DNA of 33,912 nt from Parachlamydiales bacterium (lineage in GTDB: Bacteria; Chlamydiota; Chlamydiia; Chlamydiales; Parachlamydiaceae): positions 1 through 33,912 of the forward strand of contig JAGVJP010000106.1 of the NCBI GenBank assembly GCA_020051075.1, in the 5' to 3' direction. How positions within the stretch are numbered: the stretch's first letter is position 1; every line of letters begins with the position of its first letter. Shown here one piece after another: positions 1-30,000 of this stretch. The position numbers are program-made.

Positions 1-3000
1 CCCCAAGGAATTAGGGAAACAGCTGCTTCCCTAATGCCATCTGGGTAGCTGTCGGCAAATTGGCGCATGAATTTCAAATTTCTATGCGAAAATGCAGTGA
101 TATTCGGGAATGAAGAGGCCAGATCTTTTGCAATCCTTTCAATTGTCTTCGATCCCCAAGATTCCGACAGGGCTTTTTCAGACAGCATTTTGCCGATCCT
201 CCAATAGAGCTCTATGAGTTCTTTATTAATGGATATGGCCGCGCGCAGCTGCGAGTCTTGAATGTCTTTTTTGATGTGTTCTATAAACTTGTCGTAACTA
301 TGCGGATCAACGATTTCATTTTTCTTTGCGTTCATTAAAAACCCCTAAGATATTAAATTTACTTTTTTGCTCGCGTTATCTGCGCGCGAAGACTTGTCAT
401 AAGCGAAAACCATCTCCGATGTAGAATGTCCGGTTACACGCATGATATCACTGTCTTGAAATCCTTGCTGTTTAAGGTATGTGACAGCGGAAGCCCTTAG
501 TACGTGAGGAGATACCTTAAATGGAATACCTGCAGCTTTCCCAGCTTTTGCAAATGTGACGGCCAGCTGATTGATCATGACGGCTTTGCCCGATCTGGTC
601 ACAAACACACTGCCTGTTCTTTCCCCGATGTATTCCCTAAGTTTCTTCATAATTGTCTCTGGATATGTGATGACCGTTTCTTTCAGAAGCCTTCTCATTT
701 TCGACTGAAAAAATGTAATTTCACAGCGCTCCCAATCGATTTGGCTAGTTTGCAAGGATAGAACCTCGTTAACCCTTTTTCCTCCTTGCAGGATGATTTT
801 CCCAATCAAGCAGTCTCGAGGGTTAATTTTCTCTAATTCCTTGAAGAAAGAAATCCACTGCGCCTGAGTCATTGCATGGGTTTTAACCTTCTCGTATACG
901 TTGAAGAAGGTTTTTGCATGGCCTTCTTTATTCGGGATGGCCTTTTTTATGACTCCTTCAAGACGACGGCTCAAAAATCCGGTAAATGAAATATAACAGG
1001 CTGCACGAGCTTGGCGAGTGGTCTCAGCCCAATCCTGAAAAAGCTTGATGCGGTCGATGACGCTTTCATGATTAATCAGAGCAAACTGCTGCAAACTCAT
1101 GAGGGGATTAAGCCATCCGAACTCAACCAACTTCTTGATGCCGGATCTATAGCTAAGCTGAGTTTTAGGGCTCAAAGTCGGCAGCCAATAGGAAATTGCC
1201 TCTTCTACAGAAATCTCATCCAATTTCTTCCATACCAAGTTAGCTTTGAAAGACGCTGCTTGTTCATACGTTTCCAAATGAGAGGGGATAGGAATCTCCA
1301 AAACAGCCGGCATTAAAGTCATTGCCATTTCTTCCCTTCACAAAGACCCTCAAATAGTTTTTTATGTTCCTCTCTGCACATCACTTCTTGGATCGGAGAA
1401 CTTGTCTCGGTCTTAATGATTGCAAGATCAATTTTTTTCGCAGGCTTTCTTGATTCCGGTATTTTTTCTTGAGACTTTGGGTCTTTGGGTTCCTGTTTGC
1501 TCACATACACCTCGACTTGTTTATAAGCGGCTTTATAAACAATGAAATGTAGCTCAAAAAGTCTTTCGTGGCAACACAAAGTTTTGACGATCTCGTGTCA
1601 TTTACACTAAGGCGTTGTAGCCACTATAAATACTACGACATCTTGAATACAAGACAACTAAACGCCTATTGACACAAGGCATGCCTATCGTTTATACCTC
1701 TTATCAATAAACCAGCAAAAGGCTTGGGTAAATATGAACGAACAAGATCAAACGTTAATACAGCAAGACGTCAAAGATATTGGCAGTCAAATAGCCAAAA
1801 CAATTCAAAACAGGAACAAAAAAAAGTTCAAAGCCACAATCTATTTGACTGAAGAGGCGGAGAAGGCATTTACGGAGCTTTATATTCATCGCCTCAGAAA
1901 GGACAGGAAGATCGATCGTTCGATGATCGCCTGCGATGCTCTTCAGGCTCTTTATGAAAAAGAATGCAAAATTAATTGAGTAAATTTTATATAGAATCGG
2001 GGAACGGTGAATTTTTCTGCTATTTTATGCATCGACAAGGATAATAATCCTAGATATAGCGGACAAAAGCGAACGTCTCGTAAAAAAGAACAATTGTCAC
2101 GCAGACATAGGTAATTTGAAACGAATCAACCTTAATCCGTTCAAAATTACCAGTATAGCTACTCCTGAGTCAGCGCCTATTGCAAATTCAAGACCCGCCA
2201 ACCCAAAGACAGCTAAGGAAAGAAAGACAAACTTCACTCCCAAGGAGACCACAATGTTTTGCTTGATTACTTGGAGTGTCTTTTTTCCAAGGCTTATTGA
2301 ATAAGGGACATTCAGCAGATTATTACTCATCAGTGCAATGTCAGCCGTTTCAATAGCAATATCCGAACTCCCCGCTCCCATAGCGATCCCTACGTTCGCC
2401 GTAGCCAAAGCCGGAGCATCGTTGACTCCATCGCCTACCATGACGACAGATTTATATTTTTTCTTGAGTTCATCAATTTTTTCTACCTTTTCATGGGGAA
2501 GAAGAGATGCGAAAAATATTTGAACCCCTGTTTTATTAGCTATGTATTCAGCTGAATAACGGTTGTCTCCTGTAAGCATTACCGCTTCAACATTCATTCT
2601 ACGCAAAAGATTTACGGCTTCTTTCGCTTCATTTCTGATCGTATCAGCAATGCCAAGCGCTCCTATTATCTGATTCTCTTCTCGAATGATAACAACGGTC
2701 TTCCCATGTTTTTCTAATCCTTCAACAGTATTTAAAATTGCAGGGGGTATAGTAATCCCCATGAATTTAATATTCCCAATCGCATGTTCTGCTCCATTGC
2801 AGTTAATACAAATGGCCTTTCCACCCTTCCCTGAGACATTTTCATATTTTTCCATCACATGATGAGTGATTTTTTTTTCTTGGATATAATTTAAGATGCT
2901 TTTGGATAGTGGGTGAGAGGAAAATTTCTCAATGCCTGCTGCATCAGCAAGAACTTCTTCTTCTGTATGATTACCAAGTGCTATCACGTCTGTGACATAT

Positions 3001-27000: not shown

Positions 27001-30000
27001 AATTGATTTAGAAAAAGTTTAAATGGGGAAGGGGGTTTGGGTTCTGGTAACTCATTGAAACCATAACTTTCTAATCGTATCTTTATAGCAGCAGGGGACA
27101 ATCCTTGTTTTGGATCGGTATCTAGTTCCTTGTAGGTTTGTTCTGTGGAAAAACTCCACCACGGCTTCTTCTCTGCTGGCATTTATTACCCATAACCCTG
27201 CTATCCTATAGAGGCTCCCTTTCCGCAAAATATCTTTATATTTATTTTTTTTCCATTATATTCACTTATTTATTGATAAAAGGAAAAAATACACATGCCA
27301 AGAGAATTTCAAGATCCTTATGCTGAGGATCCTTTAACCAAGATGGAGCTAAATAAACTTAATGCTTACTGGCGAGCAGCTAATTATCTTTCTGTGGGTC
27401 AAATATACCTGCTAAACAATCCTCTACTCAGAGAACCCCTAAAACTTGAACACATCAAACCTCGGTTGTTAGGGCATTGGGGGACAACACCAGGCGTAAA
27501 TTTTATTTACGCTCACATGAATCGGGTCATCAAAAATTTTGATCTTAACGTTCTCTTTATGTTAGGGCCTGGGCATGGAGCGCCTGGACTCATTGCTAAC
27601 ACGTATCTTGAAGGAACATATAGTGAATTCTACCCTCATATCACTCAAGATATCAAAGGCATGCAACGATTATTTAAACAGTTTTCCTTTCCAGGAGGTA
27701 TCCCTAGCCATGCTGCGCCAGAAACACCTGGGTCCATTCATGAAGGAGGGGAGTTGGGCTATGTGATCAGTCACTCCTACGGGGCTGTTCTAGATAACCC
27801 AAATCTTATCACTTGTTGTGTTGTAGGAGATGGAGAAGCAGAAACCGGCCCTCTTGCATGTAGTTGGCACTCTAATAAATTTTTAAATCCTGTCAATGAT
27901 GGAGCTGTGCTGCCTATCTTGCATTTAAATGGGTACAAAATAGCTAATCCCACATACCTTTCGCGAATCAGTCGCCAGGAATTGAATAATCTCTTTGTCG
28001 GATACGGATATAAACCCTATTTTGTAGAAGGATCGGAACCTGAGACAATGCATCAGTTGATGGCTAAAACGCTTGATATAGTCATCAATGAAATCCTAGA
28101 AATCCAAAAAAAGGCCCGTCAAAAAGAGGGTTCTGAACGTCCAGAGTGGCCAATGATTATCCTAAGAACCCCAAAAGGATGGACAGGACCTAAAGAAGTG
28201 GACGGGGAAAAAACAGAAAATAGTTGGCGATCCCACCAAGTCCCTTTAGGGGATTTTAAAACTAAACCCCAACACTTACAACTCCTTGAAATATGGCTAA
28301 AGAGCTATCGACCTGAAGAATTATTTGATGAAAATGGAAAATTGAAGTCTGAACTTCAAGATATGGCGCCGAAGGGAAATAGGCGCATGGGTGCAAATCC
28401 TCATGCAAATGGAGGAGCACTGCTTCAAGAATTAAAATGCCCTGATCTACGAGATTATGCTGCTAAAATTGAATCTCCTGGAAAAGTGGTTGCCGAATCG
28501 GCGAGAATTCTTGGTGGATATCTAAGAGATGTCATGAAGCTCAATCTGGAAAGCAAAAATTTTCGAGTTTTTGGACCCGATGAGACAGCTTCAAATCGAC
28601 TAGGCGCTTTATTTGAAGTCACAAATCGAACTTTTAACGCCACAATCCTCCCTTCAGATGATCATCTTTCCCCTGATGGACGTGTCATGGAAGTACTCAG
28701 CGAACATCTTTGTCAAGGGTGGCTAGAAGGGTATCTTTTGACAGGTAGGCATGGTTTTTTCTCTTGTTATGAAGCCTTTATTCATATTATCGATTCGATG
28801 TTTAATCAACATGCAAAGTGGCTCAAAGTATCGCGGCAGATTAGCTGGAGAAAACCGATTGCCTCCCTTAATTATTTCCTAACTTCTCATGTCTGGAGGC
28901 AAGACCATAATGGCTTTTCTCACCAGGATCCTGGCTTTATTGACATTGTTGTAAACAAAAAAGCTGAAGTCATTCGAGTTTATTACCCACCCGATGCCAA
29001 CACATTGTTATCCGTAGCAGATCACTGTCTTAAATCACGCAATTATGTGAATGTGATCATCGCAGGCAAACAGCCTGCTTTGCAATACCTGAACATGGAG
29101 GAAGCGGTCAACCACTGCACAAAAGGGATAGGGATTTGGGATTGGGCGAGCAACGATAAAGGACAAGCTCCTGATGTCGTCATGGCCTGTGCAGGGGATA
29201 TTCCCACATTAGAGACACTTGCAGCGGTGGATATTTTAAGGAATATGCTTCCATCACTTAAAATCCGCGTTGTCAATGTTGTTGATCTCATGGTACTACA
29301 ACCTAAAAACGAACACCCTCATGGGCTTTCAGATGCAGAATTTGATGCTTTCTTCACAACGGATAAACCCATTATTTTCGCACATCATGGCTATCCCTGG
29401 ATCATTCATCGACTTACCTATCGTCGCACAAACCATAAAAATCTTCATGTCCGAGGATATAAAGAAGAGGGAACGACGACGACCCCCTTTGACATGGCAG
29501 TACTAAATGACCTAGATCGGTTTAATCTTGCAAAAGATACTATCGATCGCATCCCCATAGCTTCCGAAATAAAAGCCAACATTAAAGATGCTCTAAATAA
29601 AAAACTTGCCTACCACAAAGAATATATTCGAGAATACGGAGAAGATATTCCCGAGGTGATCAACTGGAAATGGCCATATTGAATGAAAAAACAACTGATC
29701 CAGGTCATCAACATTGGAAGTTCATCATTAAAGATCTCTCTCTTTTGTATTTATAAGAAAAGAGTTGAGCGCATTTTGGACGCACATTGCAGAAATATCC
29801 ACGATTCCAATCCGCAAATCGAGATTGTTACCCAAGCAAAGAAAACCTGCATTAAACATCTTAAGGAAGGACAAATTGATAAAATTTTTCTACAGCTCAT
29901 GGAAGAAATCGAGAAGTTCATCGATTTTCATCTTTTTGCTATTATCGGAATAGGACATCGGTTCATTCATGGAGGCGATAAGTATACAACCAGTATGGTC

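Follow-up and report, generated by a model that had tools for sequence, protein, structure and literature searches.

A 34-kb contig of a Parachlamydiales bacterium, with terminase genes and metal-efflux cargo, as a probable arc of a chlamydial phage-plasmid

The window analysed here is the whole of contig C84 (33,912 nucleotides) of the Parachlamydiales genome bin G000. No tRNA was found in it, and its features are as follows, with identities given relative to pCRIB, the circular plasmid of a Criblamydia sequanensis isolate.

3..335, minus strand: DUF1016/YhcG-family gene, truncated by the contig end, opening cargo slot 1 (Pfam DUF1016_N, E 1e-23)
9..36: 28-bp palindrome (11-6-11) inside the DUF1016 gene
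345..1328, minus strand: Pgp7/8-family tyrosine recombinase (integrase; Pfam)
1319..1579, minus strand: small conserved ORF, 5' of the integrase (78% to pCRIB)
1734..1979, plus strand: small divergent ORF, probable DNA-binding protein (68% to pCRIB)
2097..3971, minus strand: P1B ATPase, Zn/Cd type (TIGR01512 above cut-off)
4075..5424, minus strand: terminase large subunit TerL, intact (Pfam Terminase_6N/6C, PHROG 979)
5417..5905, minus strand: putative terminase small subunit TerS (158-162-aa ORF), overlapping the TerL start
5886..7211, minus strand: ParB-like domain plus DNA methyltransferase, phage type (Pfam N6_N4_Mtase; PHROG 498, 620)
7380..7721, minus strand: DUF1064 nuclease resembling a Holliday-junction resolvase; opens the packaging block (Pfam; PHROG 190)
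7888..7915: 28-bp palindrome at the backbone edge, where similarity to four other copies stops
8050..8268, plus strand: small phage gene (PHROG 2423, E 1e-17)
8512..13502, plus strand: cargo; outer-membrane efflux protein, multicopper oxidase, DUF2231, ferric reductase-like
14052..16525, minus strand: cargo; copper-type P1B ATPase (TIGR01511 above cut-off) and DUF2933
17249..22814, minus strand: cargo; CusA/CzcA RND pump (TIGR00914 above cut-off), adaptor, outer-membrane factor
22798..27182, minus strand: cargo; glucan phosphorylase and Ca-type P2 ATPase (24489-27182)
27295..32360, plus strand: cargo; phosphoketolase, acetate kinase, UhpC-like sugar-phosphate transporter
32371..33621, minus strand: three backbone genes (80, 234 and 91 aa) closing cargo slot 2 (83-96% to pCRIB)

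The integrase, TerL, the 158-aa ORF, the N6_N4 methylase, the DUF1064 gene, the inserted P-type ATPase and the metal-efflux block lie where an earlier note on this DNA had placed them. The end that it drew at 27182 is too early, however, and the element extends to the contig end, with backbone genes at 32371-33621 that have homologues in free phages of 42-44 kb. Of the two P1B enzymes one alone is copper-type, with CPC, YN..IP and M..SS motifs; the inserted ATPase scores as Zn/Cd type, with an SCPC motif and DKTRT instead of DKTGT, and the enzyme at 24489-27182 is a Ca-type P2 ATPase. The small slot that holds the inserted ATPase in C84 contains an AbiE toxin-antitoxin pair in several relatives. 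DNA homologues of the gene at 8050..8268 occur in six elements and in a chromosomal remnant, in each case at the far edge of cargo slot 2, and xfp and ackA are present on pCRIB too. A 362-aa gene with the palindrome seen inside the DUF1016 gene comes after the integrase in G367:C27, G401:C2 and L212.

The TerL Walker B, coupling and nuclease motifs are kept in all 15 aligned rows and Walker A in 14, the exception being a frameshifted copy that lacks this stretch; TerL had no sequence match in the PDB. The ORF at 5417..5905 gave no Pfam or PHROG match, and its position and similarity point to TerS: it is 28-40% identical to the gene immediately upstream of TerL in the free phages, and its ESM Atlas neighbours are viral, one cluster having GP3_package in 16% of its members. 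The ORF at 1319..1579 had no match in Pfam, nor its pCRIB counterpart in PHROG. The ORF at 1734..1979 shares 41-43% identity over 42-46 aa with the gene adjoining parA, a resemblance to the C-terminal end of that ParA partner; it matched no family, and from its sequence we read it as a possible ribbon-helix-helix protein.

The integrase, whose catalytic motifs are kept in 16/16 copies, is 91% identical to that of pCRIB, 58% to those of Waddlia and Simkania and approximately 50% to Chlamydia pGP8-D; we infer it to be a dimer resolvase or circularising enzyme. On the extended phage reading set out in the closing paragraph, Pgp7/8-family recombinases would gain a first candidate target in the 28-bp palindrome. 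The palindrome folds at -7 to -19 kcal/mol with no long U run, a terminator being another possible role, and it was not found in the chlamydial plasmids pMoPn and pWc, the first 50 kb of pSn or the Chlamydiaceae 7.5-kb plasmid. A chromosomal dif site was rejected, the exact pattern occurring in only 28/401 genomes. Two palindrome copies in G210 lie about half a chromosome apart, and the local GC skew has no clear switch at the second.

The earlier note described the cassette as present twice in this bin, on C84 and C95, at 89-97% identity. Only C84 has the integrase and the pair of small ORFs, and C95 opens inside TerL and holds part of TerL, TerS, the methylase and DUF1064. TerL is 97% identical between them; the DNA of C84 4389-7920 and C95 4-3533 is 84.9% identical. 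The reported match of about 92% to a genome of another family was recovered (C95 2-13933 is 91.9% identical to G076:C4), and C95 is 98.5% identical to G013:C397 over 9.1 kb. TerL was counted in 28/401 Chlamydiales genomes (E<=0.001) instead of 24, and full-length TerL at 87-96% does occur in 14 other genomes of 6 families. Multi-contig short repeats are indeed absent from C84, C95 and C131, and also from C19.

C84 is a 34-kb open arc of a family of circular elements of 70-98 kb with a single gene order. Eight closed circles were found, including pCRIB: terminal repeats close G227:C12, G379:C1, G334:C52, G194:C6 and G076:C4, and G033:C3 and G270:C73 close against other records. Six of the eight measure 88-98 kb and none is longer than 98.4 kb; across the elements cargo amounts to 25-55 kb, and 35-57 kb separate TerS from the replicon. 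The closed circles carry portal, protease, capsid, neck, contractile tail and baseplate genes, the virion parts being assigned by PHROG and Pfam, together with ParA, a primase-helicase and a Rep-like gene that has Rep3-like ESM neighbours and adjoins iterons in 5/5 elements checked; exonuclease and RecT genes are retained. Of the features expected of a phage-plasmid, the family has a circular replicon, plasmid replication and partition functions, and intact head, connector, tail and packaging genes.

The capsid protein belongs to PF09950 (T1/Pam3 type), and its structure model has a predicted HK97 fold, with FCWL1, Pam3, T1 and XM1 as best matches. It occurs at 96-100% identity in 11 of the 14 other genomes with full-length TerL (on the same contig in nine) and in 13/401 genomes overall, 12 of them at 94-100%; among the 386 genomes without full TerL it was found in one, plus one prophage at 52%. 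The earlier statement that no capsid, portal or tail gene follows is true of G000, but intact relatives have these genes 2-23 kb past the integrase, across the cargo slot, so that a capsid-less cassette or island is the wrong description; a capsid-less island or phage satellite was accordingly rejected for the family. Metal efflux is common cargo (9/13 elements) and not a defining part. Other cargo includes antibiotic-resistance-like genes, namely an ABC-F protein above the NCBIfam cut-off and APH- and GNAT-family genes below it. No holin or endolysin was recognised among 54 pCRIB proteins, where the baseplate hub protein has a secondary 'endolysin' match.

Selection and decay were compared across copies. 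Pooled dN/dS is 0.02-0.10 for 33 backbone genes, virion genes included (saturated pairs, and those with dS below 0.05, do not enter the means). Constraint on portal, capsid, protease and the two terminase subunits is as strong as that on the tail genes. C84 genes lie at 0.02-0.06, and its backbone genes have no stop or frameshift. G329:C3 is without the terminase block, with head and tail genes still at 0.02-0.11, and G076:C4 is without the early module. Chromosomal remnants in G210 and G332 are missing virion genes, and the G341 bin has none, as in G000. The sole whole integrated copy, G401:C2 65,704-159,663, has several frameshifts and is broken inside parA, far from the integrase; classical attP integration was rejected on this ground, and a long-read chimera is possible there.

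The five nearest free phages, the uncultured IMG/VR myoviruses G404-G408, measure 41.9-44.5 kb and share early, head, tail and fibre genes and their order with the element (capsid 71-78%, TerL 66-77%). In contrast to the element, they have TerL adjoining the portal, an O-like initiator (G404 and G407), and neither ParA, primase-helicase, Rep-like gene, Pgp8 integrase nor large cargo. Comparison shows that the backbone corresponds gene for gene to a 42-44-kb free phage, to which two cargo slots, a Pgp8-type integrase and a plasmid replicon have been added; the plasmid replicon takes the place of the phage replication initiator, and the integrase and a cargo slot separate TerL from the portal. 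No endolysin was recognised among 59 unlabelled ORFs of three free phage genomes. Named phages with a PF09950-family capsid mostly have genomes of 44-62 kb (58/60 in a spread sample), against 70-98 kb for the elements. No head gene differs in length in a way that could account for a larger head, and the scaffold-protease and cement lengths are unchanged.

Three published plasmids belong to the same family: pCRIB (NZ_LK031773, PMC4208316), which shares TerL (93%), gene order and overlapping metal cargo with C84, Rubidus pRm2 (PMC4791399) and the 92-kb plasmid of Protochlamydia massiliensis (PMC5583166); C84 differs from them in cargo and in the small-slot ATPase. According to the text available, the latter two are circular at about 2-3 copies per chromosome (PMC4791399, PMC5583166), 7% of pCRIB genes are of phage origin (PMC4208316) and pRm2 has 20 phage proteins (PMC4791399); the label used is megaplasmid, and the available parts name no capsid, portal or tail module and give no phage-genome treatment (PMC4208316, PMC4791399, PMC5583166). 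The paper on a 'phage group' of chlamydial plasmid genes (PMC7846284) treats these, in its accessible text, as prophage-origin genes on a plasmid, with no complete virion set or transfer mechanism; it does not mention heavy metals, as had been noted, but such plasmids are connected with genes for cation efflux, copper or arsenite in the available text of two other papers (PMC4208316, PMC4791399).

Phage-plasmids of the P1 model (PMC7969092, PMC10879196) have in common with the element a circular iteron replicon, ParA, a site-specific recombinase, toxin-antitoxin pairs, a full virion set, variable cargo, and decay to plain plasmids or integrated copies. The element departs from P1 in its T1/Pam3/XM1-type capsid, its tape measure of 356-368 aa and its obligate intracellular host, and in that the pCRIB backbone has no ParB and no lysis genes were recognised; with a PF09950 capsid and no ParB gene adjoining parA, it works like P1 and is not a member of its group. 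Among 72,556 plasmids, pCRIB alone exceeds 60% for capsid or Rep, and the 2024 element table, with its 25,276 rows, does not include it. Against the Chlamydiaceae 7.5-kb plasmid (Pgp1-8), the integrase aligns over almost its whole length with Pgp8 (48% identity) and Pgp7 (37%), Pgp1 and Pgp5 match at 29% only (family level), and Pgp2, Pgp3, Pgp4 and Pgp6 gave no BLAST match in pCRIB proteins (E 0.01) or 13 contigs (1e-3); since the integrase alone is close, derivation of that whole plasmid from the element was rejected. The Chlamydiamicroviruses (Chp1-4, phiCPG1, phiCPAR39) are also chlamydial phages but are ssDNA Microviridae of about 6 kb in the available text of a review (PMC8466579), unlike the tailed temperate dsDNA phage predicted here from genes alone.

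The earlier reading of a mobile, metal-carrying element recently moved between chlamydial families is borne out. Element and host trees disagree, and the element tree separates each of the three same-family host pairs that are well grouped. The pairs G076/G013 and G379/G270 have host RpoB at 78-80% and element proteins at 99-100%, except the integrase in the second pair; G270:C73 and G379:C1, from different families, are 96% identical over a shared 71 kb that includes cargo. Most hosts are MAG bins; G076 and G013 are 100% identical over 10.2 kb, a match for which misbinning could account. pCRIB is 94.8% identical over 24.6 kb to a copy that lies in a chromosomal contig of 350 kb with the title Parachlamydiaceae. 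No relaxase or T4SS was found among the cargo clusters scanned, 198 out of 200, with 138 representatives in NCBIfam and 83 proteins in Pfam (ORFs of at least 110 aa within tile borders), and pCRIB is typed non-mobilizable; a conjugative or mobilisable plasmid was rejected for the scanned cargo. A chromosomal, vertically inherited gene transfer agent with no replicon of its own was likewise rejected, as the elements are circular with their own replicon and their tree is discordant with that of the hosts. CRISPR spacers were sought by comparing a 10-kb tail segment with 400 genomes, two candidates per genome being scored; five short matches resulted, none in a repeat array.

Gene content and comparison make it very probable that C84 is an arc of a chlamydial phage-plasmid, a temperate dsDNA phage with a short contractile tail that would live as a low-copy circle. 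As an inherited plasmid, the element would pay its way through toxin-antitoxin pairs and 25-50 kb of cargo for metals, stress and metabolism. On induction, TerS/TerL would fill a head, which, by a slight balance of probability, is enlarged to hold about 100 kb; virions would infect other chlamydiae sharing an amoeba or met outside it, and the integrase would re-circularise the injected DNA or resolve dimers, possibly at the 28-bp palindrome. The competing possibility, which we regard as unlikely, is that the head stays T=7 (about 45-55 kb) and each particle takes half a circle, a partial transducer whose circles are rebuilt by co-infection and a RecET-like system or moved otherwise. The capsid is 70-80% identical to those of complete 42-44-kb phages, its structural neighbours have seven chains per entry, and the unchanged scaffold-protease and cement, the kept exonuclease and RecT and the TerS-replicon spacing fit this. 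However, circles crowd at 88-98 kb with none above 98.4 kb despite variable cargo, as a head limit of about 100 kb would give, and the 71 kb shared by G270:C73 and G379:C1 also speaks against it, as does P1, in which one capsid protein yields several head sizes.

No virion or replicon gene was found in G000 with 197 backbone proteins of six elements; its packaging genes are present, and ParA, primase-helicase, the Rep3-like gene and iterons are absent. C84 is thus either intact but partly unbinned, or a remnant. The missing arc (early genes, origin, tail, head, portal) was probably left unbinned, C84 being otherwise a recent remnant. A defective chromosomal copy whose terminase block rides on a metal island, implied by the earlier note and somewhat unlikely for this genome, would agree with the absence of these genes from a bin 99.9% complete by marker genes only, with two related copies in one bin, and with the remnants in G210 and G332. 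Cargo made up of a CsoR-like repressor and the end of glgP also lies at one extremity of chromosomal contig C93, close to rpoN, and C95 breaks off in the start of glgP, so the C95 copy may well be integrated. Yet both ends of C84 fall within the element map and reach neither chromosomal genes nor the chromosome's short repeats, the missing genes form a single contiguous arc, and the backbone is undamaged. Domestication of the virion genes as tailocin- or injection-like particles, with the plasmid mobilised in trans by conjugation, is improbable: the lack of a recognised lysis gene, the constrained head and tail genes of G329:C3, a published table that, as far as available, gives the capsid family but no terminase for the Rubidus plasmid, and the conjugative T4SS of other chlamydiae in the available text of PMC7846284 would suit it, but head and packaging genes are as constrained as the tail, free 42-44-kb phages likewise have no recognised endolysin, and no relaxase was found. 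Cross-family spread as a binning artefact, the element being put in whichever chlamydial MAG the sample holds, is still less probable. Free contigs in MAGs make up most of the copies, G000 has 5.7% contamination, and a 94% capsid copy sits on a 3-kb contig in a Desulfobacteraceae-titled bin and another in a Verrucomicrobia-titled bin; against this, the capsid family is plasmid-borne in three cultured isolates of two families, and copies are embedded in the chromosomes of G401, G210 and G332.

The phage-plasmid reading can be extended to a proposal whose chances we put at about even: that Chlamydiae have active temperate tailed dsDNA phages, inducible from a cultured isolate, in which a 43-kb myovirus joined to a replicon and a Pgp8-type recombinase doubled its genome, enlarged its head with a barely changed capsid protein or ships its genome in halves, leaves without a classical endolysin, and serves as the main vehicle of inter-family gene flow. 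The plasmids have been published before, as have their metal genes and 'phage proteins'; a reading as complete phages was not found in the literature searched, and the chlamydial phages in the available review table (PMC8466579) are all small ssDNA Microviridae. Because an apparently complete virion gene set is present in cultured C. sequanensis CRIB-18, the phage-plasmid reading is testable at once. It raises the questions of how 70-98 kb are accommodated by a capsid family otherwise associated with 42-62-kb genomes, by what means a tailed phage lacking a recognised lysin leaves the chlamydial cell and the amoeba, and what the targets of Pgp7/8 recombinases are. In the published text available, no mechanism is given for the inferred movement of a non-conjugative megaplasmid from one chlamydial family to another, and a phage-plasmid would supply one. 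With metal efflux and antibiotic-resistance-like genes as its cargo, such an element would let host-confined amoeba chlamydiae pass resistance genes between families without conjugation.

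Contig C84, which makes up the whole window, belongs to a chlamydial bin (G000) of 2.94 Mb in 133 contigs. All the genes that the earlier note named on it are present, and the observation itself is real, but the element extends beyond what was described there. The cassette was said to occur twice. A related block does exist on contig C95, with 84.9% DNA identity across 3.5 kb, but that copy starts within the gene for the terminase large subunit (TerL) and has no integrase; within G000, the integrase and its two small neighbouring ORFs are found on C84 only. Of 401 Chlamydiales genomes, 28 have a match to TerL, and the spread claimed for it is borne out by full-length copies at 87-96% identity in 14 genomes other than G000, from 6 families. 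The short repeats that pepper the chromosomal contigs are indeed absent from C84, C95, C131 and C19. More cargo pieces of the same family lie on short contigs of G000 (C93 87,200-88,765, C23, the right end of C95, C131, C19 and C97). They comprise a CsoR-like repressor, a split glgP, CuOx, CopA and MBL/thymidine phosphorylase/prs, and one of them sits close to rpoN, where a chromosomal contig ends.

Among 72,556 plasmid records, the sole close match to TerL (93%) is on a circular plasmid of 89.5 kb from Criblamydia sequanensis (pCRIB), which has the same block as C84 and similar metal cargo. pCRIB encodes head and connector proteins (portal, minor head, protease, cement, major capsid, neck) and tail proteins (sheath, tube, chaperone, tape measure, hub, spike, wedge, fibre), as well as ParA and a primase-helicase. 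Its capsid protein occurs in 13 of the 401 genomes, at 94-100% in 12 of them. It is present in 11 of the 14 genomes with full-length TerL (on the same contig in 9) versus 1 of the 386 remaining genomes, not counting a G040 prophage with a 52% capsid; these are plain counts with no statistical test, since the related genomes are not independent. With one genome per species from 185,579 species, capsids of at least 94% identity were found at 14 loci, titled as six chlamydiae, six unnamed, one Verrucomicrobia and one 3-kb contig in a Desulfobacteraceae bin. Direct repeats of 55-77 bp terminate five element contigs. For G033:C3, closure comes from a record that spans its ends at 100% identity, and for G270:C73 from mapping onto a 99% relative. 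In total, eight circles including pCRIB (70.1, 73.5, 87.7, 89.5, 91.3, 93.2, 96.4 and 98.4 kb) and one integrated copy of 94.0 kb were obtained, a count restricted to demonstrated closure that leaves out G329:C3, G267:C3, G013:C397 and two G367 contigs. In their family identity, the elements very probably form a new group of phage-plasmids.

The gene order is constant across the elements:

Packaging side: DUF1064, methylase, terminase small subunit (TerS), TerL, small slot, divergent small ORF, small ORF and integrase
Then: cargo slot 1 (2-23 kb), portal to tail fibres, parA and its partner, primase-helicase
Last: 548-aa Rep-like gene, origin, RecET-like and repressor genes, three short backbone genes, cargo slot 2 (16-53 kb)

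The backbone measures 44-51 kb in elements with the early module. Six to ten iteron-like repeats adjoin the Rep-like gene in all five elements examined, and its ESM Atlas neighbours include one cluster with Rep3_N in 13% of members, which is a lead only. The part covered by C84 starts at the first gene of slot 1, takes in the packaging block (DUF1064 to TerL) and slot 2, and stops in the gap ahead of the next backbone gene; both ends of the contig fall within the element map. The copy is somewhat more probably intact than broken; a tblastn search with 92 pCRIB and 197 further backbone proteins found no virion, replicon or early genes in G000. Between the tail fibres and parA (pCRIB 64,734-67,512 and equivalents) lie variable tandem Gly-rich or fibre-like paralogues, likely a host-range module, and a 234-aa backbone gene in the window is a paralogue (43%) of these genes.

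Copper and heavy-metal genes homologous to those of pCRIB are carried by 9 of 13 elements (pCRIB, G076, G013, G334, G227, G194, G270, G329 and G267), and G033, G379, G367 and G401 have none. The other cargo includes acetyltransferases, phosphotransferases, an ABC-F protein above the cut-off, MFS and ABC transporters, a fluoride exporter, NO reductase, Fic, RHS and ankyrin proteins, IS5 and Tn3. In the window, the inserted P1B ATPase (2097-3971) has the phosphorylation motif DKTRT, not DKTGT. Two related small proteins (16506-16910 and 16861-17307; 69% DNA identity over 154 bp), located between the RND pump and DUF2933, match no family and are probably exported. Glycogen and sugar-phosphate genes (glgP, glgC, a UhpC-like transporter, phosphoketolase and acetate kinase) also occur as cargo at window 22798-32360, G076:C4 17.2-18.6 kb and G379:C1 55-57 kb, which is notable in an energy parasite.

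Hosts from separate families have RpoB fragments with 73-86% identity. TerL, capsid, sheath and baseplate are 100% identical between G076 (family f44) and G013 (f14), and 6 of 7 proteins are at 98-100% between G379 (f5) and G270 (f33). In a 14-protein tree (unrooted, no formal test), the host pairs of f33, f5 and f8 are all split. Single near-identical pairs, above all one with 100% over 10.2 kb, could be explained by misbinning. Misbinning cannot account for the match at 94.8% across 24.6 kb between pCRIB, which comes from an isolate, and a chromosomal copy from a bin with the title Parachlamydiaceae.

The pooled dN/dS (Nei-Gojobori) of 33 backbone genes in up to 13 copies is 0.02-0.10 (capsid 0.029, portal 0.033, sheath 0.054, TerL 0.022), excluding saturated pairs and pairs with dS <0.05 (n = 4 to 65). 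The catalytic motifs of TerL and integrase are kept, and the capsid model (pLDDT 79) has its best structural matches in the capsids of phages FCWL1, Pam3, T1 and XM1. A scan covering 198 of the 200 clusters of cargo genes in nine elements (ORFs of at least 110 aa within tile borders) found no relaxase or T4SS gene. On the other hand, no lysis gene was recognised among the pCRIB proteins and decayed forms are common, both of which count against the element still being a phage. G076:C4 lacks the early module, and chromosomal remnants occur in G210 and G332. G329:C3 has head and tail genes under purifying selection and lacks TerL, TerS, methylase, DUF1064 and the palindrome described below; the missing block coincides exactly with a contig gap. 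In G401:C2 (65,704-159,663), a whole 94-kb element lies in a 350-kb contig, opened within parA and with several frameshifted genes, and represents either integration or a long-read chimera. A phage-plasmid study describes decay of this kind (PMC10879196). The chlamydial elements may be active as phages.

A 28-bp palindrome (11-6-11) lies on either side of the cassette, at window 9-36 and 7888-7915. By strict scoring, 8 of the 11 larger element contigs have one or two copies, and G334:C52, G329:C3 and G267:C3 have none; shuffled sequence gave 2 matches in 2.3 Mb, and G000 has 5 at other places. Most copies with a palindrome near the packaging block have it 164-198 bp upstream, four contigs have weaker variants near the portal start, and the similarity of C84 to four other copies stops at the palindrome. 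Because the exact pattern was drawn from the elements, its distribution is a partly circular result: 28 genomes of the 401 have it, comprising 13 of 16 element carriers and 15 of 385 others. Outside the elements, it is inside or close to a DUF1016/YhcG gene at 9 of the 17 loci examined. There is about an even chance that the palindrome is a recombination site, and it may resemble dif, pdif and attC sites. A role as an operator is less likely, and a terminator is less likely still. Palindromes of this kind, in which the core is constant and the arms co-vary (window, G000:C103 4699-4726, loci L295-L311), recur within and just downstream of DUF1016/YhcG genes and beside a 477-499-aa ATPase gene. 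They form pairs with a spacing of 738 bp at L296 and L304 and of 3.0 kb at L295, and the arrangement looks like a gene-cassette system. In the single-contig chromosome G210:C1 (2,067,739 bp), palindromes at 804,385 and 1,836,326 are 1,031,941 bp apart, almost exactly half the chromosome.

The nearest outside capsids (70-80%) are carried by contigs that reach about 44 kb. Five such IMG/VR records (41.9-44.5 kb) are rated 100% complete, with terminal repeats in two and integrase in none. Four that were mapped share the backbone with the elements, and two of these have an O-like initiator. Because the mapped phages have no replicon genes and TerL next to the portal, the chlamydial lineage would have acquired a plasmid replicon where the fibre genes meet the recombination genes, and an integrase block between TerL and portal, the direction being taken from outgroups. 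These records (G404-G408; L315-L326) are complete 42-44-kb myoviruses, possibly of chlamydial hosts, with tape measures of 348-363 aa and no recognised endolysin or integrase; none of 59 unlabelled ORFs in three of them was recognised as an endolysin. A more distant prophage-like contig in another chlamydial family's bin (G040:C2 1-39,208; L242, L110; capsid 52%, TerL near the portal) is a possible second tailed-phage lineage. Distant TerL homologues (30-43%) outside the element family occur at G216:C1 831,316 and 439,048, G388:C60 and C61, and G118:C256.

Of 60 named phages sampled across the 1,359 capsid matches, 58 have 44-62 kb, one has 106.5 kb and one is a fragment. The elements have about twice the genome size of their kin. 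Head-size variants of P1, T numbers and head capacities form the background to this puzzle. The ceiling of 98.4 kb despite free cargo suggests a larger head, and a head that takes the whole genome is slightly favoured. The unchanged lengths of the head genes suggest that the head is no larger, in which case virions would form at T=7 (about 45-55 kb), with half a circle per particle.

The plasmids themselves are published. pCRIB is circular, with 89,525 bp, cation efflux genes, an arsenite operon and 7% of genes of phage origin (PMC4208316). pRm2 has 80,897 bp, a PCR-verified circle, 2-3 copies, 20 phage proteins and copper genes (PMC4791399); a 92-kb plasmid occurs in two copies (PMC5583166); and a 'phage group' has its capsid family on three isolate plasmids and terminase on two, with transfer from P. 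massiliensis to C. sequanensis (PMC7846284). The accessible portions of PMC5010888, PMC8242063, PMC12407071 and PMC4533152 contain nothing on the element as a phage, those of a paper with a table of 780 phage-plasmids do not mention chlamydiae (PMC7969092), and LK031773/Criblamydia was not found in the supplements consulted of PMC10879196 and PMC9600943. A reading as complete phages was not found in the literature searched (full text, largely outside subscription journals). Unclassified viruses are predicted to infect Chlamydiales (PMC12644861), and the described chlamydiaphages are Microviridae according to PMC8466579. The new phage-plasmid group would belong to a phylum that has small ssDNA viruses as its listed phages.
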